This document shows, piece after piece, positions 4,883 through 57,109 of a stretch of DNA of 64,000 nucleotides (the stretch's first letter is position 1; each line of letters begins with the position of its first letter). The notes beneath the pieces are model-generated. The model was not told the DNA's origin and did no database searches. It saw only the letters and a program-made list of their open reading frames with translations. This DNA is from Malacoraja senta. Taxonomy: Eukaryota. The position numbers and the translations under genes were made by a program. Location of the stretch: assembly GCA_038087875.1 (NCBI GenBank), contig CM075989.1:16618001-16682000 (forward strand), read 5' to 3'.

Positions 4883-5026
4883 AGGAGTTGGTCGCCAGGT
4901 TATGCATGATGCTTTGGGAAGAACTGCCTCTGTGAGTTCCTGAGGCATTCAACACCTATTTCCAATGGCACTCTTTCGGTTGCTGCTGTATTTATTTAGG
5001 CCAGCTTGGTGCAGATAAGAGTAGAT

Positions 5027-5995
5027 TAATGAATTGGACGAGGGAATTGAATGCAACATCTCCAAGTTTGCGGATGACACGAAGCTGGGGGGCAGTGTTA
5101 GCTGTGAGGAGGGTGCTAGGAGGCTGCAAGATGACTTGGATAGGCTGGGGGAGTGGGCAAATGCATGGCAGATGCAGTATAATGTGGATAAATGTGAGGT
5201 TATCCACTTTGGTGGCAAAAACAGGAAAGTAGACTATTACCTGAATGGTGGCCGATTATAAAAAGGGGAGATGCAACGAGACCTGGGTGTCATGTTACAC
5301 CAGTCATTGAAAGTAGGCATGCAGGTGCAGCAGGCAGTGAAGAAAGCGAATGGTATGTTAGCATTCATAGCAAAAGGATTTGAGTATAGGAGCAGGGAGG
5401 TTCTACTGCAGTTGTACAGGGTCTTGGTGAGACCACACCTGGAGTATTGCGTACAGTTTTGGTCTCCTAATCTGAGGAAGGACATTCTTGCCATAGAGGG
5501 AGTACAGAGAAGGTTCACCAGACTGATTCCTGGGATGTCAGGACTTTCATATGAAGAAAGACTGGATAGACTCGGCTTGTACTCGCTAGAATTTAGAAGA
5601 TTAAGGGGGGATCTTATAGAAACTTACAAAATTCTTAAGGGGTTGGACAGGCTAGATGCAGGAAGATTGTTCCGATGTTGGGGAAGTCCAGAACAAGGGG
5701 TCACAGTGTAAGGAGAAAGGGGAAATCTTTTAGGACTGAGATGAGAAAAACATTTTTTACACAGAGAGTGGTGAATCTCTGGAATTCTCTGCCACAGAAT
5801 GTAGTTGAGGCCAGTTCATTGGCTATATTTAAAAGGGAGTTAGATGTGGCCCTTGTGGCTAAAGGGATCAGGGGGTATGGAGAGAAAGCAGGTACAGGAT
5901 ACTGAGTTGGATGATCAGCCATGATCATATTGAATGGCGGTGCAGGCTCGAAGGGCCGAATGGCCTACTCCTGCACCTATTTTCTATGTTTCTAT
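5027..5995 (+). mobile_element. 5'-truncated CR1 LINE with TAGAT target-site duplication
   Basis: KFADDTKLGG, RPHLEYCVQFW, FFTQRVVNLWN, ttctatgt tail. TAGAT at 5022-5026 and 5996-6000. Confidence 0.93.
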
Positions 5996-12820: not shown

Positions 12821-12907
12821 GAGGTAATCAGAGTGCAGCGAGGTAATCAGAGTGCAGCGAGGTAATCAGAGTGCAGCGAGGTAATCAGAGTGCAGCGAGG
12901 TAATCAG
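12821..12907 (+). repeat. 19-bp tandem repeat GAGGTAATCAGAGTGCAGC x4.6 at the CR1 5' end
   Basis: Four identical units (12821-12896) plus an 11-nt partial. Confidence 0.95.
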
Positions 12908-13232
12908 TGGCAGTTGGAACGGAAGGGACGTCACGACCGCGGTGCCACAGGTGCCACAGGTGCGGCCCGGGCTGTCGCCGAGGGAGGAAGGACGGAGCCG
13001 CGGCTCGAGAGGCTAACAGAGCTAAGAGGTAGGCCACGCACTGCAAGGGAGCAGTGGACCAGACAGAAAGAGCGGACGGAATTACCACTAGACAGCCAAA
13101 CCAGTAGGTAATTTACGGCTGGGGTAAGTACTTTCCCATTTATAGGAGGTAGGATTATATAAATAAGGGGTGTTTTAATACAGTAATCCAGGTAGGGGAT
13201 TCTTAATAGGACCAGTTAATTACTTATATAAG

Positions 13233-14186
13233 ATGAGCGGCCAGGAGATGTGCCAATACTGTGAGATGTGGGAATTTGTCGACACCATTGATGTAGATGA
13301 TCCCTACAGCTGCAGTAAGTGTTTGAGGCTAGCGGAACTCGAGCTCCGCATTGATGAGCTGGAGACCCAACTTCATACGCTGCGGTGCATCAGGGAGGGG
13401 GAGTATTACCTGGATGTTTTGTGCCAGGGGATGGTCACACCGACCAGTTTAACTAATTCAGTAGTTAGTGAGCAGGGAAAGGAAGGTGTGGCCATAAGCG
13501 AGGCAGGTAGGGGGAACCAGGAGGAGATGCGGCAGGAGCCACAGCCCTTGTCCCTGACGAGCATGACCGAGGCTCTTACTCAATGTGAGGACGGGATCAG
13601 GGGCTGTGGGAGGGATGAGCAACCTGGCTGCAGCACCGTGGATCAGGGGGCCATTCAAGAGGGGGGAGTTAGAAGAAATGCCGTTGTGATAGGGGATAGT
13701 ATTATTCGGGGGGTAGATAAGGTTCTCTGCGGCCAGCAGAACATGTCCCGAAGGCTGTGTTGCCTACCCGGTGCTAAGGTTAAGGATATCTCTGCGATGC
13801 TGGAGAGAAATTTGCAGAGTGAGGGGGAGGATCCAGTGGTCGTGGTCCATGTGGGGACCAATGACATAGGAAGGACGAGGCAGGAGGATCTGCTGAACGA
13901 GTTTGAGCAGTTAGGGAATAAATTAAAAAGCAGAACCTCGAGGGTACTGATCTCCGGATTGCTACCTGAGCCACGGGCCAAATCGGCGAGGGTACGTAAA
14001 ATTAAAAAGCTGAATGCGTGGCTCAAAGACTGGTGTGGGAAAAATGGGTTTGGTTTCTTGGGCCACTGGCACCAGTACTGGGACAGGGGGGATCTGTTCT
14101 GTAAGGACGGACTTCACCTGAACGGTGCTGGGACTGGGGTCCTGGCAAATCATATAACTAGGGCAGTAGAGAGGTCTTTAAACTAA
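13233..14186 (+). CDS. CR1 ORF1: N-terminal CxxC..CxxC zinc finger and coiled coil plus SGNH esterase domain (317 aa)
   Basis: CQYC/CSKC, LELRIDELETQL heptads, GDS (VIGDSIIR), GTND and DGLH motifs. Confidence 0.93.
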   Translation: MSGQEMCQYCEMWEFVDTIDVDDPYSCSKCLRLAELELRIDELETQLHTLRCIREGEYYLDVLCQGMVTPTSLTNSVVSEQGKEGVAISEAGRGNQEEMRQEPQPLSLTSMTEALTQCEDGIRGCGRDEQPGCSTVDQGAIQEGGVRRNAVVIGDSIIRGVDKVLCGQQNMSRRLCCLPGAKVKDISAMLERNLQSEGEDPVVVVHVGTNDIGRTRQEDLLNEFEQLGNKLKSRTSRVLISGLLPEPRAKSARVRKIKKLNAWLKDWCGKNGFGFLGHWHQYWDRGDLFCKDGLHLNGAGTGVLANHITRAVERSLN

Positions 14187-14275
14187 GTAGCGGGGGGGAG
14201 GTATCAAGGGGGGTAATAAAGGCAGGGGTAGAGGAAATAGAGCAGGGTATCAGTGGGGAAACGGAAAATCAAAAT

Positions 14276-17170
14276 GTGACAGGAGGATCCAGAATGTGTG
14301 AAGATAAAGCTCTAGATGTAAAAGGGGCAAAAACAGAAAGGAAGGGTAGTAAAAATCATCTGAAAGTGCTGTATCTAAATGCACGGAGTATTCGAAATAA
14401 GATAAATGAATTAACGGTGCAATTAAGTATATATAGTTATGATATCGTGGCCATTACGGAGACATGGCTGCAAGGGGATCAGGATTGGGAGTTAAATATA
14501 GAGGGGTACTCGACAATTAGAAAAGATAGACAGGAAAGAAAGGGAGGAGGGGTGGCCCTTTTAATAAGGGAGGGAATAACGGCAATAGAGAGGAAGGATA
14601 TTGCGTTGAAGGATCAGGATAGTGAAACAGCTTGGGTACAGATAGAGAATAACAAGGGGAAAAAAACACTAGTGGGTGTAATTTATAGACCTCCAAATAG
14701 CTGTGACGCTGTTAGTCAGAACATAAATCTGCAAATAGTTGACGCATGTAAAAAGGGAACTGCTGTAATCATGGGGGACTTCAATTTTCATATTAATTGG
14801 GCAAACCAAACTGGGCAGGGTAGACTAGAGGAAGAGTTTATAGAATGTATTCGAGACGGGTTCCTAGAACAGTATGTCACAGAACCGACAAGGGGGGAGG
14901 CAATCTTGGATCTGGTCCTGTGTAATGAAGCAGGATTAATTAAAAATGTCATAGTTAGGGACTCGTTGGGAACAAGTGACCACAATATGGTCGAATTCCA
15001 TATTCAAATAGAAGGGGAGCAGGTTGAAACTCAGGCTAGGGTACTTAGTTTAAATAAGGGGGATTATGAAGGTATGAGGACTGAGCTGATCAAAGTTGAC
15101 TGGGATAGCAGACTCAAGAATAAGACGGTACATGAGCAGTGGTGTACGTTTAAGGATCTACTGTATAACCTTCAAGAAAAATTTATTCCTATGAAGAAAA
15201 AAAGGGGTAAGGGAAAGAACAGTCAGCCATGGCTCAGTAAAACTATAAAGGATAGTATTCGGCTGAAGGCAAGAGCATATAAGGTAGCCAGAGATAGTGG
15301 GAGGGTAGAGGATTGGGAAGCATTTAAAGGTCAGCAAAAAATAACTAAGAGATTAATCAAGACGGGGAAAATAGACTATGAAAGGAATTTAGCGAACAAC
15401 ATAAAAACTAATAGTAAGAGTTTTTATAGCTATATAAAAAGAAAAAGGGTGGCTAAGGTGAACGTTGGTCCATTGGAGGGTGAGACTGGAGAGTTGTTGG
15501 TGGGGAACATGGAAATGGCAAAGGCATTAAACGAGTATTTTGTATCAGTCTTCACCATAGAAGACACAAAAAATATTCCAACGCTGGATAAACAGGGGGC
15601 GGTAGGAATGGAGGAGCTAAATACTATTAAGATCACCAAGGAGGTGGTATTAGGGAAATTAATGAGACTGAAGGTGGATAAATCCCCTGGGCCTGATGGA
15701 TTACATCCAAGGGTCTTGAGGGAGATAGCGGTGGGGATTGTGGATGCATTGGTGATAATTTTCCAAAACTCCCTGGAGGCAGGAACGGTCCCAGTGGATT
15801 GGAAAATGGCCAATGTAACACCTATATTTAAAAAAGGAAGTAAACAGAAGGCGGGTAACTATAGACCGGTTAGTCTAACATCGGTGGTGGGTAAAATGTT
15901 AGAGACAATTATTAAAGAAACACTAACGGGGCACTTGGATAAACATGACTTCATCGGACAGAACCAGCATGGTTTTGTGAAGGGGAAGTCCTGTTTAACG
16001 AATCTGCTCGAATTCTTTGAGGAAGTAACAACCCGGGTGGATAAAGGGGAACCGGTGGATGTGGTATACTTGGACTTCCAAAAGGCTTTTGACAAGGTGC
16101 CACATAAGAGACTATTGCTAAAAATAAAAAAATATGGGATTGGGGGTAATATATTAGCATGGGTAGAGGATTGGCTAACAAATAGGAAGCAGAGAGTGGG
16201 GATAAATGGTTCATACTCGGGATGGCAACCGGTAACTAGCGGGGTTCCGCAAGGGTCGGTGCTGGGACCCCAGTTGTTCACAATTTATATAAATGATTTG
16301 GAGGAGGGAACCAAGTGTAATATATCAAAATTTGCGGACGATACAAAAATGGGAGGAAAAGTAGGGGATGAGGAGGATAGGAAGAGTCTGCAAAAGGATA
16401 TAGATAAGCTAGGTGAGTGGGCAACAACTTGGCAGATGAAATTTAATACTAATAAATGTGAAGTCATTCACTTTGGGAAAAAAAATGATAGGGCAAGTTA
16501 TTTTCTAAATGAGGTGGAGCTGCGTTGTAATGCAACGCAAAGGGATCTAGGGGTAGTAGTACATGAATCACTAAAAGTTAGTATGCAGGTGCAGCAAGCA
16601 ATCAGGAAGGCCAATGGAGTTTTGGCCTTTATTGCTAGGGGGGTTGAGTATAAAAACACGGAGGTCTTGCTGCAGCTGTACACAGTATTAGTGAGACCAC
16701 ATTTGGAATACTGTGTACAGTTCTGGGGTCCATACTTAAGAAAGGATGTACTGGCCCTGGAGGCAGTGCAGCGAAGGTTTACAAGATTAATTCCTGCAAT
16801 GAGGGGATTGACATATGAGGAAAGGTTAAGTAGGCTGGAACTCTACTCTTTGGAGTTTAGAAGAATGAGAGGCGATCTCATTGAAACATATAAGATCGTG
16901 AGGGGCCTTGATCGGGTGGATGCACCGAGGATGTTCCCAATGATTGGGGAAACTAGAACTAGGGGACATAGTTGTAGAATAAGGGGGGGCTCTTTTAAAA
17001 CTGAGATGAGGAAGAACTTCTTCACCCAGAGGGTGGTTAATTTATGGAATTCACTGCCCCAGGGAGCAGTGGAAGCAGAAACATTAAATATATTTAAGTC
17101 TAAAATAGATTGTTTTTTAGCTGCCAAGGGGATAAGGGGCTACGGGGAGAGGGCAGGGATATGGACCTAG
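14276..17170 (+). CDS. CR1 ORF2: APE endonuclease plus reverse transcriptase (964 aa, no internal stops)
   Basis: YLNARS, ITETW, GDFN, SDH (APE); KSPGPDG, YRPVSL, DFQKAFD, GVPQGSVLGP, FADD (RT). The frame is open upstream to 14162. The first ATG is at 14294. Confidence 0.97.
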   Translation: MTGGSRMCEDKALDVKGAKTERKGSKNHLKVLYLNARSIRNKINELTVQLSIYSYDIVAITETWLQGDQDWELNIEGYSTIRKDRQERKGGGVALLIREGITAIERKDIALKDQDSETAWVQIENNKGKKTLVGVIYRPPNSCDAVSQNINLQIVDACKKGTAVIMGDFNFHINWANQTGQGRLEEEFIECIRDGFLEQYVTEPTRGEAILDLVLCNEAGLIKNVIVRDSLGTSDHNMVEFHIQIEGEQVETQARVLSLNKGDYEGMRTELIKVDWDSRLKNKTVHEQWCTFKDLLYNLQEKFIPMKKKRGKGKNSQPWLSKTIKDSIRLKARAYKVARDSGRVEDWEAFKGQQKITKRLIKTGKIDYERNLANNIKTNSKSFYSYIKRKRVAKVNVGPLEGETGELLVGNMEMAKALNEYFVSVFTIEDTKNIPTLDKQGAVGMEELNTIKITKEVVLGKLMRLKVDKSPGPDGLHPRVLREIAVGIVDALVIIFQNSLEAGTVPVDWKMANVTPIFKKGSKQKAGNYRPVSLTSVVGKMLETIIKETLTGHLDKHDFIGQNQHGFVKGKSCLTNLLEFFEEVTTRVDKGEPVDVVYLDFQKAFDKVPHKRLLLKIKKYGIGGNILAWVEDWLTNRKQRVGINGSYSGWQPVTSGVPQGSVLGPQLFTIYINDLEEGTKCNISKFADDTKMGGKVGDEEDRKSLQKDIDKLGEWATTWQMKFNTNKCEVIHFGKKNDRASYFLNEVELRCNATQRDLGVVVHESLKVSMQVQQAIRKANGVLAFIARGVEYKNTEVLLQLYTVLVRPHLEYCVQFWGPYLRKDVLALEAVQRRFTRLIPAMRGLTYEERLSRLELYSLEFRRMRGDLIETYKIVRGLDRVDAPRMFPMIGETRTRGHSCRIRGGSFKTEMRKNFFTQRVVNLWNSLPQGAVEAETLNIFKSKIDCFLAAKGIRGYGERAGIWT

Positions 17171-18429
17171 GTATGGTTAGTATAGTAAGACCTGAGTGAT
17201 CTCCTGGACAAGTGTCGATCGCCTGGATTGGGGTCGGAGAGGAATTTCCCGGATTTTTTTCCCGAATTGGACCTGGGTTTTTATCCGTTTTTTTGCCTCC
17301 CCCAGGAGATCACGCGGTTCTTGGGGTGGAGAGGGGTGATAGCGGTATAAAGGGGAGGGTAGTGTCTTGTGTTCTGTGTCTTGTGTCTACTGTTTGTGGG
17401 TAAGGGTGTCTGTTTAGTGTTCAGCCATGAGCGAATGGCGGTGCGGGCTCGATGGGCCTGGTGGTCTACTCTCGCACCTACTTTCTATGTTTCTATGTTT
17501 CTATGTTTCTATGTACTATGGTGTATACAAAGTTTCAGGGAGCAATTAAGAAGGGAACCACACAGGAGACTACTGGGGGAGATGAAGGCGAGCATAATCA
17601 TGGACTGAAAACTGACTAGAAATGTGTAGATAAAAATTAACAATTTCCTGAACTGAATGAAAATGGCTAGTAATGACGGAGGAAAATCAAGTGAAAAAGA
17701 GGATTAAAAAAAAAAACAGGATGGCACAAAAATAATGAAAAAATGATCCTCCTTTCATTTGGAACTAAAGTGGAAGAGATTTATAATGGCATAACTAAAT
17801 TGTGTAACACAGTAAGATTCATATCAACTCACACTGTCTCTGTCCCAATTTGAAAAACAGCATTGAAAATTAATCCCATAATTAAATAAATGCATCAATA
17901 ATGCTTAAGAATTTCAATCCGAATCGACATCTTCACACGTGCAAAAATAAGTAGATTTGCTCAAATGACTGTTGCTCTACATTGGAATTTGTTGCAAAAT
18001 GGTCTTGGGTATGAAAACTATCCAATCACACAGTAATAAATAGGCTGATAGAGCAATGTTGACAAATCAAGCAAGAATAATGCAAGAGCACATGAGCTTA
18101 GATTCTTGTTTTAGGCACCCACTCTAGACAAGCTATTCATCTCCGGACAGACTGGTTTCTCGTCTGACTCCTGCTCAGCTGCATACAACACTGTTAATCA
18201 TCCAACATTGCTTTCGAAGAGATAAAACACAAAAAGGAATTATCAATTTGTCAGCCAGCTGACAACACCAAAGTCTCCTGCAGGAGCTTCCTGTGACATC
18301 ACTGGCAGCTTTCTCTAATGCTGTGACAGGGACACTTGAAAAACTTGCCAATTGGCACAAACAGACATAAGGAGCTTACTTTGACATGGAGGATGCAAGG
18401 ACTACCTTAATCGTGTCAATACCTACCAC

Positions 18430-21560: not shown

Positions 21561-21759
21561 AGCAGGAATGATTTCAATGAAAAAATCTGGGCTGAATTAT
21601 GTGGTCCATGATTCATGATGCAAGCTCCCCGGGTCCCTATCATTTACTGTGGAAGTCCAGCCCTTTGAATTTATCTACGTCCGCCATTCCTCAGCCCAGT
21701 GGCTCAGTTGGGCCAGATCCCATTGTGATCGGAGATAATCTTCTTCACTGTCCACCATA

Positions 21760-22200
21760 CCACCAATTTTTGTGTGATCTAAAACGCATTACCCAAGCCA
21801 CCTACATTCGAATCCAAATCATTAATGTAAATAATAACAAACAGCAGTGGACCCAGCACCAATCCCCGTGGTACATAACTTGTTACAGACTCCAGTCTGA
21901 AAACAATCCTCTACCGCTACTTGCCTTTCTAACTTCAAGCCAATTTTGATTCCAAATGGCTAGTTTGTCATGGATCTGATGCAATATGATAGCCTTCCAG
22001 TCCAGCCTATCTTGCAGTAACTTGCCAAAAGTCTTGCTAAAGTCTATATAGACAATGTCTACTCCACAGTCCTCTTCAATTTTCTTGTTCACCTCTTCAA
22101 AAAACTATTTGGTGAGACACAATTTTCCACGCACAAAGCTATGCTGACTATCCCTAATTGGTCCTTACCTTTTCAAATCCCAGCAGATCCCTTCTCCCAA
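21760..22200 (-). mobile_element. CR1 RT fragment
   Basis: VDIVYIDFSKTFGKL and gtaacaagttatgtaccacgggga (GVPQG-like). Confidence 0.8.
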
Positions 22201-26934: not shown

Positions 26935-27460
26935 TATACAACGAATGGGAGGGCTTTAGGAAGTATTGAGGAACAGGACCTTTATGTACAAGTGCAAACG
27001 TCCCTGATGGTAACAGCACAGGAAGATACGGTTGTGAAAATGGCATACATTTTCACATCTTCATTACTTGGGACATAAAAGCAAGAATACACAGGTCATG
27101 GAGTAACATTATAAAATACTGGTTAGATCACAGGTGAAGTACTGTGTGCATTTGTGATTGCCACATGATAGGAAGGTTGTAATTGCACAAGAAAGCGTGC
27201 AGAGGAGATTCACCAGAATCTTTTCAGTGATAGAGCCTTTCAGTTACGAGAAGAGGCTGATAGACTAGGGTTGTTGTTTCTTGGGGTGAAGGAAGCTGAG
27301 GAGGGACCCGCTGGAGGTATACAAAATTACACAGTGTATATTGTAGGGTGGAAACGTTTCCTCACATTCCGTAAGAGGTAAAAGGTTTAAGAGATTTGAG
27401 ATTTTACTTTTTTCACTCAGAGGGTGGTGGGAATCTGGAACATACTGGTGGTGGTGGATG
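26935..27460 (+). mobile_element. Old CR1 3' fragment
   Basis: gtgcagaggagattcaccaga and ttcactcagagggtggtgggaatctggaa. Confidence 0.7.
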
Positions 27461-41427: not shown

Positions 41428-42778
41428 CTAAGGAAAAACACACTTGAATCAAAAATTTCATTGCATTTAAGCACAGAATACAGCAAAGCCTTGTAAAATG
41501 TTGAATCAGATTACAGTAAGATGAATAGAATGTTTTTTTCATACATTATGCACTTAGCACCTTCTACTGTTTTCATCATAAAATTTCACTCATGCTGGGA
41601 TAAATACAAGCTATGATACTTGAAGCTAAGTTAGCAGTGATATTTGACAGTTCAAAACCATGAAACATGTCAGAACACTGCAAAAATAAATAAATAGAAA
41701 TAACATCAGATTTATTAGTACAGAGCTAATTATAGCTAAGTAGCTTTTATGTAATTTAACAACAAAGAACTGCAGATGCTGGTTTTCAAAAAAAAGGCAG
41801 TGTGCTGAAGTAACTCAGTCGGTCAGACAGCATCACTGGAGAATATGGATGGGTAACATTTCTGATCGGGATCGTTTTTCAAACCTTTATGTAACTATGT
41901 TGGAGGACTCATAAAATAACATCAATGCCATGCTATAAATTGAGCCAAGGTCGAAGGGTATAAAATAAACTTAGGTTCAATCGTTTATAAACAGATATAC
42001 TGCTTTTTTCAGAAGATCACTGTTTATCAGCTGAGTTTAGGACAATGTACAACAAAAAAACCCCACAATGCTGCTTTTAATCTTAAGCACCAAATCCAAC
42101 CCCCTTGCCCCAAAAACGCGACCATGATTTATGTTCATCTGCTCGCACCTTGCAATGACACATTTGGAAAACAGGTTGATTTACAAAAGACATATAATAG
42201 TTGCTTCATCAAAGGTTACTAAGGAAATGAAAAGCTCTAAGAGCAAGATGAATTGTTATGGATAAAAAAATTGGCTGGCTCACAGTAAACTGAAAGTAGG
42301 CATATATTAGTCTTTTACTGGTTTGCAACATGTAATGATTGGTGTGCCAGATGGATCGGTCCTGGGTTCTCAGTTTATAACGATTCATATGGTTTTGGAT
42401 ATGTGTGAGCACACCAGTGTGAGTGAGATTTAGTGGGCTAAGATCTGGAAAAAAATTGTCAAAAATTACAATTACATTGAAAAATAAAGCATCTGACACT
42501 CTCAGGACTTTAGTGATGCTGGATTGGCAGATATTCTGTACTATTGGATGTTAGTTATTTGTTAAAACATTACACAATTTTGATTCACTTTTTATAAAGT
42601 TTCGTTCAGACCGAAAGGTCTGAATGACAATAAAGGAATCTATCTATCTATCTATCTATCTATAAAGTTGTTCCACAAAAGTGAAAAACATTTCCAGAGA
42701 ACCAAGTGAATTTAGAGACGTAGAAAATTAAAACTGGTGAATTTTAAACATTCACAAGAAATTGAGACCCAATACATA

Positions 42779-44373
42779 CAGTGCCCTCCATAATTATTTG
42801 CCTCTGTACTCCACAATTTGAGATTTGTAATAGAAAAAAATCACATGTGGCTAAAGTATACATTGCACATTTTAATAAAGGCCATTTTTATACATTTTGG
42901 TTTCACCATGTAGAAATTACAGCAGTGTTTATGCATAGTCCCCCCCATTTCAGGGCACCATAATGTTTGGAACACAGCAATGTCATGTAAATGTTTAGTA
43001 TTTTATTGCATGTCCTTTGCATGCAATGACTGCTTGAAGTCTGCGATTCATGGACATCACCAGTTGCTGGGTGTCTTCTCTGGTGATGCTCTGCCAGGCC
43101 TGTATTGCAGCCATCTTTAGCTTATGCTTGCTTTGAGGGCTAGTCCCCTTGAGTTTTCTCTTCAGCATAATAAAGGCATGCTCAATTGGGTTAAGATCGG
43201 GTGATTGACTTGGCCACTCAAGAATTGACCATTTTTTAGCTTTGAAAAACTCCTTTGTTGCTTTAGCAGTAAGTTTGGGATCATTGTCTTGCTGTAGAAT
43301 GAACAGCCGGCCAATGAGTTTTGAGGCATTTGTTTGAACTTGAGCAGATAGGATGTGTCTATACACTTTAGAATTCATTATGCTACTACCATCAGCAGTT
43401 GTATCATCAATGACGATAAGTGAGCCAGTTCCTTCAGCAGCCATACATGCCCAAGCCATTACACCCCCACCACCGTGTTTCACAAATGAAGTGATATGCT
43501 TTGGATCTTGGGCAGTTCCTTCTCTCCTCCGTACTTTGCTCTTGCCATTACTCTGATATGTTAGTCTTCATCTCCTCAAGACATTTTTCCAGAACTGTGG
43601 TTGCTCTTTTAAGTACTTCTTGGCAAACTGTAATCTGGCCATCTTATTTTTGTGGCTAACCAGTGGTTTGCCTCTTGCAGTGTTGCCTCTGTATTTCTGT
43701 TCATGAAGTCTTCTGCGGACAGTGGTCATTGACAAATCCACACCCGACTCCTGAAGAGTGTTTCTGATCTGTCGGACAGGTGTTTGGGGATATTTCTTTA
43801 TTATAGGGAGAATTCTTCTGTCATCAGCTGTGGAGGTCTTCCTTGGCCTGCCAGTCCCTTTGCGATTAGTAAACTCACCAATGCTCTCTTTCTTCTTAAT
43901 GATGTTCCAAACAATTGATTTTGGTGAGCCTAAGGTTTGGCTGATGTCTTTAACAATTTTATTATTGTTTCTCATAATGGCTTATTTGACTTAATTGGCA
44001 CAACTCCACTCCTAATGTTGATAAATAGCAATAAAAGTTTCCAATGTTGATGAAAAGACTGGAGGAAAGACGAGGTGCTGAGAGCACTCTTATACCTGCA
44101 TTAAGGAGGCATTTAAACACACCTGAGCAATTACAAACACCCATGAAGCCATGTGTCCCAAACATTATGGTGCCCTGAAATGGGGGGACTATGTATAAAC
44201 ACAGCTGTAATTTCCTCATGGTGAAACCAAAATGTATAAAAATTGCCTTTATTAAAATCTGACAATGTGCACCTTAACCACATTTGATTTTTTCTATTAT
44301 AAATCTCAAATTGTGGAGTACAAAGGCAAATAAAGAAATGATGGGTCTGTCCCAACCATTATGGAGGGCACTA
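42779..44373 (-). mobile_element. Near full-length Tc1 (DD34E) transposon with long IR/DR-type TIRs, transposase disrupted
   Basis: TA|CAGTGCCCTCCATAAT ... ATTATGGAGGGCACTA|TA. TIRs about 200 bp with internal ccataatgtttgg(g/a)acac repeats. ORFs 43568-43975 (HTH) and 42995-43483 (QQD-34 aa-E). Confidence 0.95.
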
Positions 44374-44670: not shown

Positions 44671-46743
44671 GGATAGAAGGCCAAGGACTGGTTCATGGTA
44701 TAAGATAAGAGGCAACCTGATGGTTAGCATGGAGATGGAGGACCATGCACCATCTTCAGAACTGCCATTCTCTTATGCTCCAATTGCAACCATGTAACCT
44801 CTAATAAAAGAGGCAACATTGATCCCCAAGAAAATCCATTTAGTTGATCTCTACATGATCTGTTGTGTAATAGCACCTTGATCAGATAGTACTGTCAGTC
44901 TGGTTGAATGCCGCAACATCCACGATACATGATGCTTTCACCAAGAGGTAGTAGGAGGACAGCCAATTTAGGTTCTGCTGATCACTCCCAGAAGAAACTC
45001 TTCATGTTATTTTTAGCTAATAGATGTAAATAATCACACATCATCAGGACTAATGGAAACACTCAGATGGGCAGCAACTGGGGAAAGAGAAATATTTAAC
45101 ATTTCCAATTGAAGACACTTCATTAGGTCTTTAATCTGAAACATTAACTCCGATTCTCTTTCCACAGCTGTTGTCTGATCTCCTGTGTGCTTTTATCATT
45201 TTCTTTTTTATTTCATATCTGGAGTATTTTTTGATTTTCTTTTATCAGGATTAATGTTAAAATTACTTGAACCAATTATTATTTCACTAAATTCCTATTA
45301 CTTAATGCAAAAAAAAAAGAAACGCTCTGATCATTGACAGAAAGCTGCCCTACAAAACCATAACCGTCTCCAAAATCTGAACCTATCATAATTGGTCTGC
45401 TCAGAAAGTCACATACTTGTGGTCACTTTAGATGGATCTGAAAATCAATGTGTACATCATAAGAGACCTCAAAAGATCTGATGTTTAGAAGAGTGATTTG
45501 CATTTTGATAAGGGAGGCGGTGAATGTGTCAAGTGATTCCCCATCTGATAGAAGCAAGAAGCATTCTTGAGCTTAGAGGAGATCTAGTACCTCTACTCTC
45601 ATGCTTCAAATTCATTTTCTCCAGAATGCACTAGTACTGCCGTGGGTAAATTCAGGTCAAAAATGGGTGCAGCGGTGAACCATTCTGCCATTCCAGCTCT
45701 ATGAACCATTCAACAGCATCACGACTGGGGAGACTTTCCTTCTCCCCTGACTCTCAGTCTGAAGAAGGGTCTTGACTCAAAACTTCACCTATTGCTTTTC
45801 TCCAGAGATGCTTTCTGACCCGCTGAGTTACTCCAGCATTTTGTGTCTATCTAACTCAAATATATGCTCATACACGTTTCCCATATGCCTTAGTGAATAT
45901 CAGTTTCAGTCTTGAACATATAACTGAGAATTCATTGTCCCTTGACACAAAAAGAGTTCCGCGCTCTGTGTGAAACAATTCATTCTCACCACAATCCTAA
46001 AGATCTTATCCTCAGGCCATATATCCCAGTTCTGAAGTCTGCTGCAAAGTAGAACATCCATCCTGTCAGAATATATAATGGCCAATTAAGATCGCTCATT
46101 GTTCTAAAATCCAAAAAGCATTAACTAATCTGATTCAATCTCTCTCACCATCCTAATTGACCGTCTCCGGTACGGGGTTGGTATTGATGGCACTGCCCTG
46201 AGCTGGTTCATCTCCTACCTCAAAGACAGGAGTTTCTCTACAAACATAGGCAACACTTTCTCCTCCCCAGCTAGCCTTTGCTGCGGGGTTCCACAAGGCT
46301 CCATCCTAGGCCCCATTCTCTTCTCCCTGTATATGCTCCCCTTAGGCCAAGCCATTCAAAGGCATGGCATTTCCTTCCACTGCTATGCAGACGATACACA
46401 GCTCTATCTCCCCCTGAAACCCAACAACCAATCAAATCTACTCAGCCTTATACACTGCCTCGAGGATATAAAGTGTTGGATGGCCCAGAACTTCCTCCAA
46501 CTAAACGAGAGCAAGTCTGAGGTCATCCTACTCGGCCCCTCGGATTCCATCAAAACAATAGCAGGCAGCCTTGGAAGCCTTACCCCCTTACTCAAAACTC
46601 ACATCAAAAACCTTGGCATGATATTTGACTCCGCGTTGAAGTTTGACAAACAAATCAATGTTGTGGTAAAAGCTAGCTTCTTCCAGCTTCGCACGATAGC
46701 TAAAATAAAAATATTCCTCCAATTTGACGACCTTGAAAAGATC

Positions 46744-48584: not shown

Positions 48585-50280
48585 ATATATACACACATAA
48601 ATAAACAGATAAAGTGCAATAGGCTGTTATAGTTCAGAGTTTGTTTGATGACGAGTTTAATAGCCTGATGGCTGTGGGGAAGAAGCTGTTCATGAACCTG
48701 GATATACCAGATTTCAGGCTCCTGTACATTCTGCCTGATGGCAGCGGAGAGATGAGTGTGCGGCCAGGATGGTGTGGGTCCTTGATGCTGGCAGCCTTTT
48801 TGAGGCAGCGATTGCGATAGATCCTTTCGATGGTGGGGAGGTCAGAGCCGATGATGGACTGGGCAACGTTCTGCATTCTTTTCCGCTCCTGGATGCTCAA
48901 GCTGCCGAACCAATCCACGATGCAATCAGTCAGCATGCTCTCTACTGTGCACCTGTAGAAGTTCCAGAGAGTCCTCTTTGACATACTGACTCTCTGTAAT
49001 CTTCTCAGGAAGTAGAGGCGCTGATGTGCTTTCTTTATGATTGCATCAATGTGCTGGGACCAGGAAAGATCTTCTGAAATATGCACACCCAGGAATTTGA
49101 AGTTCTTGACCCTTTCCACCATCGTCCCGTTCATATAAACGGGATTGTGGATCCCTATCCTACCTCTTCCAAAGTCGACATTCAGTTCCTTGGTTTTGCT
49201 CTTGTTGAGAGCCAAGTTATTGTGCTGGCACCATTGGTCAATCGGTCGATCTCACTTCTATACTCTGACTCATCACCATCAGTGATTCGTCCCACAACAG
49301 TGGTGTTGTCGGCGCACTTGATGATGGAGTTCGCACTCTGTCTGGCTACGCAGTTGTGAGTGTAGAGTGAGTAAAGTAGGGGGCTGAGCACGCAGCCTTG
49401 AGGTGCTCCCGTGTTGATTGTTATCGAGGATCACACATTTCCACCAATATGGACAGACTGTGGTCTGTGGATGAGGAAGTCGAGGATCCAATTGCAGAGG
49501 GATGCGCAGAGACCCAGATCTGAGAGCTTGGTAACCAGCTTGGAGGGGATGATCGTATTAAACACTGAGCTGTAGTCAATGAATAACAGCCTGACATACG
49601 AGTTTTTGTTGTCCAAGTGGTCCAGAGCGGAGTGGAGAGCCAGTGAGATCGCATCCACCGTTGATCTGTTGTGGCGGTAAGCGAACTGCAGTGGGTCGAG
49701 GTTCTTGTCGAGGTAGGAGTTGATATGCGCCATAATCAACCTCTCAAAGCACTTCATCACCACAGACGTTAGTACCACTGGTCGATAGTCATTGAGGCAC
49801 ATCACCTTGCTTTTCTTGGGCATTGGTATTATTGATGCTCTTTTAAAGCAGATGGTAACCTCAGACCTCAGAAGTGAGAGGTTGAAAATGTCTGTAAAGA
49901 CTGCAGCCAGCTGGTCCACACAGGTTTTTAGAACACGACCGGGTATGCCATCAGGTCCAGGCGCTTTCCGAGGGTTCACCCTCCTGAAGGATCTTCTGAC
50001 ATCGGCCTCTGTGACTGTGACTGAAATACCATCACCGCGAATGGGGGCTCGGTAAGGCACATTAGTGTTCTTCCTATCAAACCGTGCATAAAACGCATTG
50101 AGCTCGTCAGGGAGTGATGCTTCGCTGACAATTGAGCTGCCTCCTGATTTCGCCTTGTAGGACGTGATGGCATTCAAGCCCTGCCACAGTTGCCAAACAT
50201 CCGTCTCATCCTCCAGCTTGGTGCAGAAGTCCCTTTTGGCCATTTTGATGGCCTTACCAAGGTCGTATCTGGACTTGATG
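48585..50280 (-). mobile_element. Rex1/Babar-clade LINE, 5'-truncated, RT region with few lesions
   Basis: RKAPGPDGIP, NDYRPV, LDPLQFAYR, LFIDYSS, K(C)ADNTTVVG, KFLGVHI, NSFFP. Confidence 0.92.
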
Positions 50281-55098: not shown

Positions 55099-56395
55099 TA
55101 GAGTCAGAGAATGATAGTGTGGAAACAGGCCCTTCGGCCCAACATGTCCCATCTACACTAGTCCCACCTGCCTGCGCTTGGTCTATATCCCTCCAAACCT
55201 GTCCTATCCATGTACCTGGCTAACTGTTTCTTAAACGATGGGATAGTCCCAGCCTCAACTACCTCCTCTGGTTCAATACACCCACCACCCTTTGTGTGAA
55301 AAAGTTACCCCTCAGATTCCTATTAAATCTTTTCCCCTTCAACTTGAGCCTGTGTCCTCTGGTCCTCGATTTCCCTACTCTGGGCAAGAGACTCTGTGCA
55401 GCTACCTGATGTATTCCTCTCATGATTTTGTATACCTTTATAAGATCACCCCTCATCCTCCTGCGCTCCAAGAATAGAGACACCCCCCAACTCAACCTCT
55501 CCCTATAGCTCACACCCTCTAGTCCTGGCAGCATCCTCATAAATATTTTCTGAACTCTTTCAAGCTTGACAATATCTTTCCTATAACATGGTGCCCAGAC
55601 TGAACACAATATTCTAAATGCGGTCTCACCATCATCTTATACAACGGCAACATGACCTCCCAACTTGTATACTCAACACTGACTGATAAAAGCCTTATTG
55701 ACCAGCTTATCTACCTGCAACTCGATCTTCAAGGAACCATGCGCCTGCACTCCTAGATCGCTCTGCTCTACAACACTCCCCAGAGGCCTACCATTTATTG
55801 TGTAGGTCCTGCCCTTGTTAGACGTCCCAAATGCAACACCTCACACTTCTCTGTATTAAATTCCATCAACCATTCCTCAGCCCACCTGGCCAATCGATCC
55901 AGACCCTGCTGCAATCTTTCACAACCATCTTCACTATCTGCAAAACCACTCACTTTTGTATCATCAGCAAACTTGCTAATCTTACCCTGTATGTTCTCAT
56001 CCAAATCATTGATGTAGATGACAAACAGTAACGGGCCCAGCACCGAACCCTGAGGCACACCACTAGTCACAGGCCTCCAGTCCGAGAAGCAACCTTCCAC
56101 CATCACCCTCTGCTTCCTTCCATGGAACCAATTTGCTATCCATTCAGCTATCTCTCCTTGGATCCCATGCGATCTAACCTTCCAGAGCAGCCTACCATGC
56201 GGAAACTTGTCGAATGCCTTACTGAAATCCATGTACACAACATCTACAGCTCTGCCCTCATCGACCTTTTTGGTCACGTCTTCCAAAAACTCAATCAGAT
56301 TTGTGAGACACGACCTCCCACGTACAAAACCATGCTGTCTATCCCTAATCAGCCCTTGCCCATCCAAATGCCTGTATAACCTATCCCTCAGAATA
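55099..56395 (-). mobile_element. 5'-truncated CR1 LINE upstream of ARNT2
   Basis: QHGFVRGRSCLTNL, DFSKAFD, GVPQGSVLGP, KFADD, RTRGH. Same subfamily tail as 463-1203. Confidence 0.93.
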
Positions 56396-57109
56396 TTGTG
56401 GATTGATTTGCTCGGTTTGATTGCGAATAACATTTAAGGGAATTCAGAGACACAATGCACAAAATAGAGTATCACAAAAGGTGCTAGGTAAATGTATATC
56501 GTTCATTAAATAGCCATTTTAACGACTGAAACATAGTTGGAGTATATTTGAGAAGCATCTTTTATATTTGTAATGTTGCATCTTATTTTACAAGGCATGC
56601 TTTTCCTTCCCCATTAACGTTGACTTACCAATAAATGACAATTTTCTACCAGATTAATTATTCATAACAAAATGCTTTTCCTGAAGGAATCAAGTAATGC
56701 GTGTTTTCTGGAAGTGAACAAAGTGCAAAATAATTACATTCTAAACCTTGTTTTCAGATTGAATGTGTACCTTAACTTTGGTTGTGTTGCTGTTCAATAT
56801 ACCACCTGATCAGTGTGAACATCTTAGGACTCTGAAAGTGGAAAAGCACAATGGCAGGATTTAGCAGAGGCACAGTTAAAAGTAGCATGTTTATGTCAAT
56901 GTAATTTGTAAATTGGAGGAGCCATTTTTCATTTCATTTGGAAGTGCAAGATAGAACATGTCTGATGGGTCACGATGCACAAGTCCCCAGGCAATGGGGG
57001 AAATAAGTGTACCCAACATTAACCTTGTCTTGAAGACCACCTTTGTATGTGGCTGCATAAGCTGGACATAAAACCGAAGTATGCAACCACTATCACCACA
57101 TGTCTACAC

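Follow-up and report, generated by a model that had tools for sequence, protein, structure and literature searches.

Results

A full-length CR1 element with two intact reading frames

The window, by which we mean the whole 64,000-nt stretch of DNA that was analyzed, contains a CR1-type LINE. CR1 is a very common vertebrate jumping gene. The features of this element, given as window positions and all on the forward strand, are the following.

12821..17514, +, CR1-type LINE, full-length, young, both frames intact (5' end approximate)
12821..12907, +, 5' array, 4.6 tandem copies of a 19-nt unit
13233..14186, +, ORF1, 317 aa, C terminus ...RSLN-stop
14162..17170, +, ORF2 frame, -1 relative to ORF1, stop-free, 1002 aa
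14177..14183, +, slippery heptamer U_UUA_AAC in the terminal codons of ORF1
14183..14359, +, low-complexity linker in the -1 frame, between slip site and first endonuclease motif
14184..14186, +, termination codon of ORF1 (TAA), adjoining the 3' end of the heptamer; sister families use TAA, TAG or TGA
14192..14228, +, G-rich tract beginning 8 nt past the heptamer, a candidate 3' stimulator
14294..14296, +, earliest in-frame ATG in ORF2 (codon 45 of the open frame), not common to other families
17171..17514, +, 3' UTR, ending in (TTTCTATG) x 4.1

As in described CR1 elements, there are two ORFs, with the same order of domains in ORF1, an APE-RT ORF2 and an 8-nt tandem tail. ORF1 encodes a CX2C-X16-CX2C zinc-finger-like motif, a long helix, a disordered linker and an SGNH esterase (13686-14132; Pfam PF13472, E 1e-13), and it matches PDB 4C1B (E 2e-28). 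The AlphaFold model of ORF1 has a pTM of 0.55, and in it Leu316 terminates the last esterase helix. A leucine placed in that helix could matter to the fold, which is a point against the frameshift reading proposed below. ORF2 encodes an APE endonuclease (first motif at 14360, Pfam match at 14429-14983) and a reverse transcriptase (RT; 15836-16483), with matches to PF03372, PF14529 and PF00078. This combination of a Cys motif, long helix and SGNH esterase in ORF1 with APE and RT in ORF2 is that of the esterase-type CR1 elements. The tail consists of short tandem 8-mers with no poly(A), which we take to be a mark of CR1. The genome holds 1,303 candidate copies, and the 40 that were scored are each ~100% identical over 701 nt; copies start at varying points of the 5' array (five loci shown). 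Homologues of ORF1 come from sharks, rays, a chimaera, a teleost, Xenopus, turtles and lizards.

ORF1 ends on a conserved slippery heptamer

The last codons of ORF1 read TCT TTA AAC TAA, so TTTAAAC (14177-14183) lies in the correct X_XXY_YYZ register immediately before the stop, and the -1 frame is that of ORF2, which is open throughout its 1002 codons, both as the preliminary description had claimed. The fusion that it proposed is likewise reproduced by computation, 317 + 995 = 1312 aa with the junction ...RSLN-LSSGGEV. Since the window has two further TTTAAAC-stop strings, both without a G-run behind them (31957, + strand; 15054, - strand), the heptamer by itself is not rare; what counts is its position and its conservation.

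That the heptamer should be kept in sister families was borne out on a genome-wide scale, with the heptamer and a stop present at ~9,000 ORF1 ends from several families. A pattern of His-Leu-Asn codons, 53 nt and TTTAAAC-TRR has 9,021 genome matches vs 11 for a reversed control, and the exact TTTAAAC is found in 9,021 of the 9,977 sites with any coding of Leu-Asn-stop (controls 345 and 11), counts that are not independent because the families are related and some linkers are held in common. A further family, retrieved by a heptamer-free pattern, also carries TTTAAAC. When 10 family representatives are compared, most of them first retrieved by a heptamer-containing pattern, the codon before TTA specifies six different residues and ends in T in 10/10, the Leu codon is TTA and the Asn codon AAC throughout, and all other codons of the 24-codon block vary. 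The site is thus conserved beyond amino-acid need, its codons being fixed and not just its residues. From the codon use of the element, a U-ending codon followed by TTA and AAC would be expected by chance in ~2/100 lineages.

The protein homologues display the same trend. A Leu-Asn C terminus is found in 51/82 ORF1 homologues, from cartilaginous fish, a teleost, a frog, turtles and lizards, with the stop 25 to 39 residues past the catalytic motif depending on the group. The residue before LN is one without a U-ending codon (E, K, Q, M or W) in 1/51, vs 27/51 and 21/51 at the two preceding positions. Some distant ORF1s end in QGN (nine), SGN (one) or SKN (one), which, read from protein only, fit the slippery heptamers G_GGA_AAC and A_AAA_AAC. 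A review (PMC5009743) names four heptamers as the most shifty, and these two and U_UUA_AAC are three of them. Neither LN, GN nor KN is present in 38 of the 98 distant ORF1s with a usable end. The viral contigs yielded no CR1 ORF1 and no DNA for the QGN- or SKN-ending elements, and 22 prokaryotic matches to the pattern were attributed to chance. Judged from these comparisons, the junction signal is a trait of a whole clade and not of one element.

The -1 frame is kept open and has no common start codon

We then considered where ORF2 could start. The linker between slip site and endonuclease varies by family in sequence and length, as do the stop codon and the spacer; the slip-to-endonuclease distances, of 99, 153, 180, 183, 186, 234, 252 and 315/318 nt, are nevertheless all multiples of three. 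The -1 frame has no stop between the end of ORF1 and the endonuclease in 26 of the 29 copies in which the endonuclease motif was found, so that the early stops that would have spoken against a fusion are largely missing. In 11 representatives selected as intact-looking copies, the 288 codons that precede the first Met contain 0 stops, compared with 19 and 20 when the other frames are read.

ATG 14294, which had been put forward as a possible independent start, is not kept. The first Met falls at codon 3, 4, 9, 22, 23, 25, 35, 39 or 63 in these representatives, or there is none before the endonuclease; an AUG precedes the endonuclease in 9/11. In one family, which numbers at least 1,659 copies, the 51-codon linker lacks any in-frame AUG before the endonuclease in 23/23 copies read. 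In the window copy, ATG, CTG, GTG, TTG and ACG are all missing between five codons 5' of the site and 15 codons 3' of it. In 7/14 representatives, the -1 frame closes 1-5 codons 5' of the heptamer, and no start codon is held in common; overlapping Phe-Lys-Leu coding from an upstream ORF2 start was rejected on these grounds.

An AUG overlapping or adjoining the ORF1 stop is absent from the window and from 9/11 representatives, the exceptions being L137 and L062. The former belongs to a family with a UAAUG stop-start overlap, seen in three of the four fetched copies with a stop (L136, L137 and L140); in contig L062, an AUG lies 2 nt past the ORF1 stop. The UAAUG family, the L062 AUG and the 38/98 distant ORF1s described above all count against a frameshift reading.

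RNA reads from a related organism carry a fixed in-frame 3-nt deletion 5' of ATG 14294 (19/19, 13/13 and 105/105 reads). In three RNA runs of this relative, no splice joint was seen at the junction, and the reads do not pile up there as at a start, at low depth and with both strands covered. A search of sequencing runs listed no RNA run as a holder. A search for longer proteins, which might have revealed natural single-ORF fusion families, gave 10 matches; two of them (P0083 and P0089) run from the esterase into the endonuclease and were read as mutated copies.

A conserved G-run follows the heptamer

Downstream of the heptamer, after an 8-nt spacer, all five G tracts of the preliminary description are found: G7 (14192-14198), GG (14200-14201), G6 (14208-14213), GG (14221-14222) and G4 (14225-14228). 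The conserved core is a run of G5-7, usually followed after 1-2 nt by a second G run. A run of G5 or more is present in 38/42 junctions and starts 7-10 nt past the heptamer in 37 of them, and the tract is the top-ranking G4Hunter window of the element. The G-quadruplex stimulator suggested earlier is a mere possibility, with a G-run that is conserved but a two-tier fold at best in most families: a quadruplex is predicted at the site in 7/13 representatives (six two-tier, one three-tier) and none in the window copy (ViennaRNA).

Efficient -1 frameshifting usually has a 3' hairpin, pseudoknot or long-range partner. No 3' hairpin beyond shuffles was found here (fold z-scores -0.64, 1.48 and 0.39), neither a hairpin nor a pseudoknot close behind the site is supported, including an H-type pseudoknot like that of coronaviruses, and an Rfam search gave no match. 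Purines predominate in the downstream strand, for which the families have no C-rich partner in common. While the G-run of the window has a good pairing partner near 17295 in the 3' UTR, this partner is absent from the 3' UTRs of other families (seven of the eight fetched 3' regions contained a CR1 end), and long-range pairing was rejected as a general mechanism. Likewise, a 13-nt stretch perfectly complementary to the slip site (15042-15054) is carried by 0/12 representatives of other families. This lack of a conserved 3' hairpin, pseudoknot or long-range partner is a further point against frameshifting.

Discussion

Since ORF1 ends on a slippery signal and ORF2 has no common start codon, the RT is probably made by -1 slippage. 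Our preferred explanation, which we regard as highly probable, is that ORF2 of esterase-type CR1 elements is produced by programmed -1 ribosomal frameshifting, giving here a 1,312-aa ORF1-ORF2 fusion; we infer the slippage, the fusion protein and the role of the G-run from the anatomy and conservation of the junction. Most ribosomes would terminate directly behind U_UUA_AAC, yielding ORF1p of 317 aa in this element. A minority would pause with the Leu and Asn tRNAs on UUA AAC; the tRNAs would then slip back by one base to pair with UUU AAA, and decoding would resume at CUA. The product would be a zinc-finger/esterase-linker-endonuclease-RT fusion akin to retroviral Gag-Pol. The pause probably comes from the G-run 7-10 nt downstream, without a classical pseudoknot, and the G-run may act as a G-quadruplex, through a bound protein or by contact in the mRNA entry channel, perhaps aided by the adjacent stop codon.

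The lack of an AUG alone would be no proof of frameshifting, because L1 ORF2 is made without needing its AUG, as noted in part of PMC5009743. Termination-reinitiation, as proposed for L1 and SART1, would have ribosomes remain on the RNA after ORF1 and begin again in the -1 frame close to the stop or right at it, using an AUG where one is present and otherwise any codon, with the heptamer and G-run serving as a reinitiation signal and ORF2p being a separate protein. It fits a stop that always directly follows the heptamer, it equally predicts a -1 frame open from the stop onward, and it has precedents in the SART1 overlap, which is the UAAUG seen in one family (in the relevant part of PMC3894237), and in AUG-independent initiation, the model favored for L1 ORF2 in a passage of PMC5009743. 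However, it leaves unexplained the exact X_XXY_YYZ register, wobble T included, and the apparent switch to other slippery heptamers. Moreover, other families have Asp, Glu, Asn, Ser, Gly or Lys at the codon that is ATG in the UAAUG family, the window site is devoid of the AUG-like codons listed above, and we regard reinitiation as unlikely.

We give still less weight to the possibility that Leu-Asn is a protein-level motif of the ORF1p C terminus, in which case the heptamer would be incidental and ORF2 would have an AUG start of its own (14294), reached through reinitiation, through leaky scanning or from a shorter RNA. The modeled position of Leu316 at the end of the last helix and the AUG before the endonuclease in most representatives would suit it, but the fixation extends from residues to codons, a large family does without an AUG, the frame is kept open 5' of the AUG, and the RNA reads of the relative, sparse as they are, have no start pile-up at the junction. 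Joining at the RNA level, by splicing or by polymerase slippage near the heptamer or G-run, could draw on the slippage-prone nature of G-runs, which are longer in single copies (L039 and L046), and on P0083 and P0089, in which both frames are read through as one. Against this, the differences listed for the three RNA runs include no joint and no inserted base near 14177-14230, a base inserted in the G-run would lie 3' of the ORF1 stop and cannot join the frames, and the read-through proteins are single records with LN-ending sisters (P0088). This explanation, or a DNA or RNA element unrelated to decoding, is extremely improbable.

How does frameshifting in CR1 compare with known systems? LINEs are generally held to yield two separate proteins. 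Our literature search, which did not reach the founding CR1 papers, found no report of a CR1 frameshift: the CR1 literature that it covered describes two separate ORFs, with the word frameshift absent or used just for broken copies, and the supplements searched contained neither the junction sequence nor that word. In the portions of PMC5009743 concerned, coronavirus ORF1a/1b and retroviral gag-pol share with CR1 the U_UUA_AAC heptamer and its register, a downstream ORF in -1, a structural protein upstream of a polymerase and a conserved element 7-10 nt 3'. In contrast to these, CR1 has no conserved pseudoknot or hairpin that we could find, its zero-frame stop is immediate, and it is a non-LTR retrotransposon, with no protease that could cleave the fusion. 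TRE5-A and TRE3-A of Dictyostelium are APE-type non-LTR elements whose ORF2 is said to need a -1 frameshift, but they belong to another lineage with another ORF1 type, and the statement is that of a figure legend in PMC5911963, which names no slippery site and reports no test. Stimulators without intra-mRNA pairing are on record in the same portions of PMC5009743, in Semliki Forest virus TF, in PRRSV (CCCANCUCC with PCBP/nsp1beta) and as synthetic G-quadruplexes. Like the CR1 tract, they are short primary-sequence motifs ~7-11 nt 3' of the shift site; the CR1 motif differs in being a G-run, and no natural G-quadruplex stimulator was known as of this 2016 review, in the part consulted. L1 and SART1 resemble CR1 in having a LINE second ORF expressed at a low level from a bicistronic RNA, with an AUG that is not always needed, and differ in a separate ORF2p, in the inter-ORF spacer of L1 and in that the sections concerned mention no slippery heptamer in either (PMC5009743, PMC3894237).

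A bolder reading, which we put forward tentatively and with somewhat less than even confidence, is that an ancient LINE branch produces its RT within a Gag-Pol-like fusion of ORF1p and ORF2p through -1 frameshifting, has exchanged one canonical slippery heptamer for another in the course of evolution, and relies on a structure-free G-run for stimulation. This branch would take in the repeat that dominates in cartilaginous fish, reptiles and birds, together with some invertebrate relatives. Its G-run might be the first G-quadruplex stimulator to be found in nature, or else a switch that sets the ORF1p:ORF2p ratio when bound by protein, either a host G-run binder or ORF1p itself.

The mode of translation of LINE ORF2 is termed an open question in part of PMC3894237. 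If frameshifting is indeed the answer for CR1, its particle would be built in retroviral style, with the enzyme tied at a fixed ratio to the structural, possibly membrane-binding ORF1 protein, and the real start of ORF2p would shift. An intact genomic copy would then be recognized by its heptamer and open linker rather than by an AUG, builders of CR1 assays would learn which parts to keep, and the junction would offer a short natural cassette for testing a pseudoknot-free stimulator.

A Young CR1 Element with a Slippery Heptamer at the End of ORF1

The window contains a full-length LINE, listed here together with fragments from elsewhere in the window: nine of LINE RT, all decayed, and one of a DDE transposase.

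Repeat features of the window
12821-17514, + strand: full-length LINE, with both ORFs, 5′ array and 3′ tail present
5′ end of LINE 12821-17514: 19-nt tandem array
13233-14186: ORF1, 317 aa
14162-17170: ORF2, frame open
3′ end of LINE 12821-17514: 3′ tail (TTTCTATG)4
549-1204, - strand: decayed LINE RT fragment
2046-2285, - strand: decayed LINE RT fragment
5025-5893, + strand: decayed LINE RT fragment
21666-22158, - strand: decayed LINE RT fragment
27071-27447, + strand: decayed LINE RT fragment
42266-42424, + strand: decayed LINE RT fragment
46168-46704, + strand: decayed LINE RT fragment
49221-50141, - strand: decayed LINE RT fragment
55164-56409, - strand: decayed LINE RT fragment
42995-43567, - strand: DDE transposase fragment

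In ORF1 of this LINE, an SGNH esterase follows a Cys motif and a long helix, and ORF2 carries APE and RT domains, a layout that is the one given for vertebrate CR1 with a type IVB ORF1 in PMC4120745. The coordinates in the preliminary description, which placed the heptamer U_UUA_AAC at 14177-14183 directly before the ORF1 stop, were all borne out on re-checking. The family is very young, with 1,303 candidate copies and an identity of ~100% among the 40 scored, and the junction is the same in 30/30 fetched loci (the window itself being one of them). The closest named ORF1 homologues come from rays and sharks, which makes a cartilaginous fish the probable host. The 3′ UTR of this family holds ~200 nt (17190-17400) that are extra relative to the fetched 3′ UTRs of other families and have no Rfam match. 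The slip site and spacer (14177-14189) are matched over 13 nt by their exact reverse complement within ORF2 (15042-15054), 865 nt farther downstream; no such sequence was found in the representatives of other families.

Conservation of the Heptamer within the Genome

Identical copies test nothing, and we therefore compared other CR1 families. The pattern of His-Leu-Asn codons, 53 nt and TTTAAAC-TRR occurs 9,021 times in the genome (control, 11), and 9,977 times when any Leu-Asn codons are allowed at the ORF1 end (control, 345). The esterase-motif anchor GLHLN, with the ORF1 end unconstrained, gives 13,018 matches (control, 1,882), and 8,360 anchors are followed by the unaltered heptamer at precisely the same spacing (control, 1), the last two patterns differing slightly at their ends. 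The heptamer is thus conserved in sister CR1 copies. Judged by eye among 100 GLHLN matches listed, it is present in ~65 of ~78 CR1-type rows, the remainder showing small scattered changes instead. A family with another esterase motif, found with a pattern containing no heptamer, ends in GAT TTA AAC TAA.

The last 24 ORF1 codons of 10 family representatives are variable everywhere but the end. The residue before Leu is of six kinds, with T at the third codon position throughout; Leu is TTA and Asn is AAC without exception; and the stop that follows is TAA, TAG or TGA. Since most of these 10 were originally found via a pattern containing the heptamer, the weight lies on the unbiased genome counts. 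The codon two before TTA (14172-14174 in the window) ends in G in 10/10 representatives and not in the metagenome locus L062, possibly an upstream context effect.

Conservation in Other Animals and Distant Relatives

Leu-Asn forms the C-terminal end of 51/82 ORF1 homologues and, where matched, almost always lies 26 residues from where DGLH begins. Those with names come from rays, sharks, Paramormyrops, Xenopus, turtles and lizards, and a Callorhinchus record has LNY at its end. Of the remaining 31, many are fragmentary, derive from spliced gene models or are distant proteins. A residue without any U-ending codon stands directly before Leu-Asn in 1/51, one place earlier in 27/51 and two places earlier in 21/51. 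In metagenome contigs, scanned with an ORF1 pattern blind to the junction, 17 of 36 loci match ORF1 by tblastn and seven extend to its end, five with TTTAAAC and two with substitutions; the -1 frame continues from the heptamer into the endonuclease in three (L062, L063 and L082). The seven presumably resemble bird CR1. A look-alike, TTTAAACTRA, lies near the 3′ end of amniote CR1 ORF2, where it is read in frame as FKL, out of slippery register (PMC4316615, supplement file 2).

Among the best 150 matches of a profile search, 98 carry the catalytic motif and terminate 20-45 residues beyond it; these end in LN (50), GN (9), KN (1) or otherwise (38). GN is preceded by Gln in nine and Ser in one (which adds one GN record outside the motif filter), and KN by Ser. 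As read from protein sequence, QGN/SGN and SKN ends fit G_GGA_AAC and A_AAA_AAC, both of which PMC5009743 counts, like U_UUA_AAC, as being among the most shifty heptamers. A quick tree of the esterase domain minus its tail (87 rows, SH-aLRT support only) places the LN ends in three well-supported groups, one including a Lamellibrachia protein, and the GN and KN ends together in a fourth, for which we infer from the proteins a switch among slippery heptamers. Two other groups have none of these ends, one of them carrying the DGLHP motif, as in the zebrafish ZfL2-1 esterase (PDB 4C1B). Five proteins near the GN group (P0130, P0169, P0191, P0197 and P0227, the last outside the tree) have FF or GF(L) 1-4 residues before the stop, which, seen as protein, could reflect U-rich slippery sites.

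An Open -1 Frame without a Conserved Start Codon

We tabulated 42 junctions, in 29 of which the endonuclease start is recognizable; the motif is absent in 13, mostly through decay. In 26/29, the distance from slip site to endonuclease is a multiple of three and the -1 frame has no stops, as the preliminary description had it for the window, with 3-13 stops in each other frame; the other three are copies with indels. These distances span 99-318 nt. Across 11 representatives, picked as intact-looking and including two pairs with linker sequence in common, the 288 codons upstream of the first Met contain 0 stops in this frame vs 19 and 20 in the other two. On the 5′ side of the heptamer, the -1 frame closes within 1-5 codons in 7/14 representatives and is open for 18-90 codons in the others, and no start codon common to the 14 was found there.

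The ATG at 14294, considered earlier as an independent ORF2 start, is not conserved: the first Met differs or is absent in other families. In a family of at least 1,659 copies with a 153-nt linker (its search pattern set linker length, not openness), the linker is open and devoid of in-frame AUG in 23/23 copies read, from 100 listed; three of the 23 have a Met within the first 100 codons, each elsewhere inside the endonuclease. In RNA reads of a related organism, which say nothing on autonomous transcription, an in-frame deletion of 3 nt is fixed upstream of the ATG, and the junction shows neither a splice joint nor a pile-up of starts among the differences listed (low depth, both strands).

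Some linkers are chimeric, two families being joined in frame. At the L031-L060 and L135-L140 junctions, ORF2 linker halves are common to several families and the ORF1 ends differ, which suggests that CR1 families have repeatedly recombined within the linker without losing the frame. One family (L126; L143, positions 424 and 519) has a second TTTAAAC-TAA and G-run ~95 nt beyond the first, which seems to be the remnant of a junction from another family retained in a chimeric linker.

A Candidate Stimulator Downstream

A run of at least five G follows the heptamer in 38/42 junctions, starting 7-10 nt downstream in 37. Within each element, it ranks with the 30-nt windows richest in G (top 0.1-6%, a G5 run being required for choosing the site). 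Gly codons account for part of the run, GGG making up 49% of them here. The G-tract proposed earlier is thus a conserved sequence element and a candidate stimulator. The quadruplex proposed with it is predicted, mostly two-tier, in 7/13 representatives and not in the window copy. No local stem beyond shuffles was found in the window, nor a pairing partner common to CR1 families. Stimulators without intra-mRNA pairing are described for Semliki Forest virus and PRRSV in PMC5009743.

Frameshifting and Its Alternatives

The slippery site at the ORF1-ORF2 junction is real, and sequence comparison supports the frameshift reading well: CR1 most probably makes an ORF1p-ORF2p fusion, which tandem tRNA slippage at U_UUA_AAC would produce at low level. 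The main alternative, that ORF2 is made by termination-reinitiation, is unlikely. It accounts for the open -1 frame, and the stop that always abuts the heptamer, the UAAUG of one CR1 family and the L1 precedent of an ORF2 without need of AUG all count for it, but it does not explain why the wobble T and the codons are fixed or why the heptamer has apparently switched. A protein-level ORF1 C-terminal motif combined with an ordinary AUG start for ORF2 fits poorly and is highly improbable; joining of ORF1 and ORF2 at the RNA level, also a poor fit, is slightly more improbable still.

Full-text literature searches found no paper that proposes a frameshift for CR1. None appears in the available parts of PMC11835228, PMC3905857, PMC4120745, PMC4255032, PMC2734521, PMC4316615, PMC3894237 and PMC8665684, and CR1 is not mentioned in that of the frameshift review PMC5009743. 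There is an appreciable, if lesser, chance that Haas 1997/2001, Kajikawa 1997, Kapitonov and Jurka 2003, Wicker 2005, Alisch 2006 or the Repbase/Dfam notes already remarked on the slip site. PMC5911963 attributes a -1 frameshift to Dictyostelium TRE5-A and TRE3-A. The CR1 junction would represent a known type of recoding in an unexpected setting, with an unusual candidate stimulator, and is directly testable.
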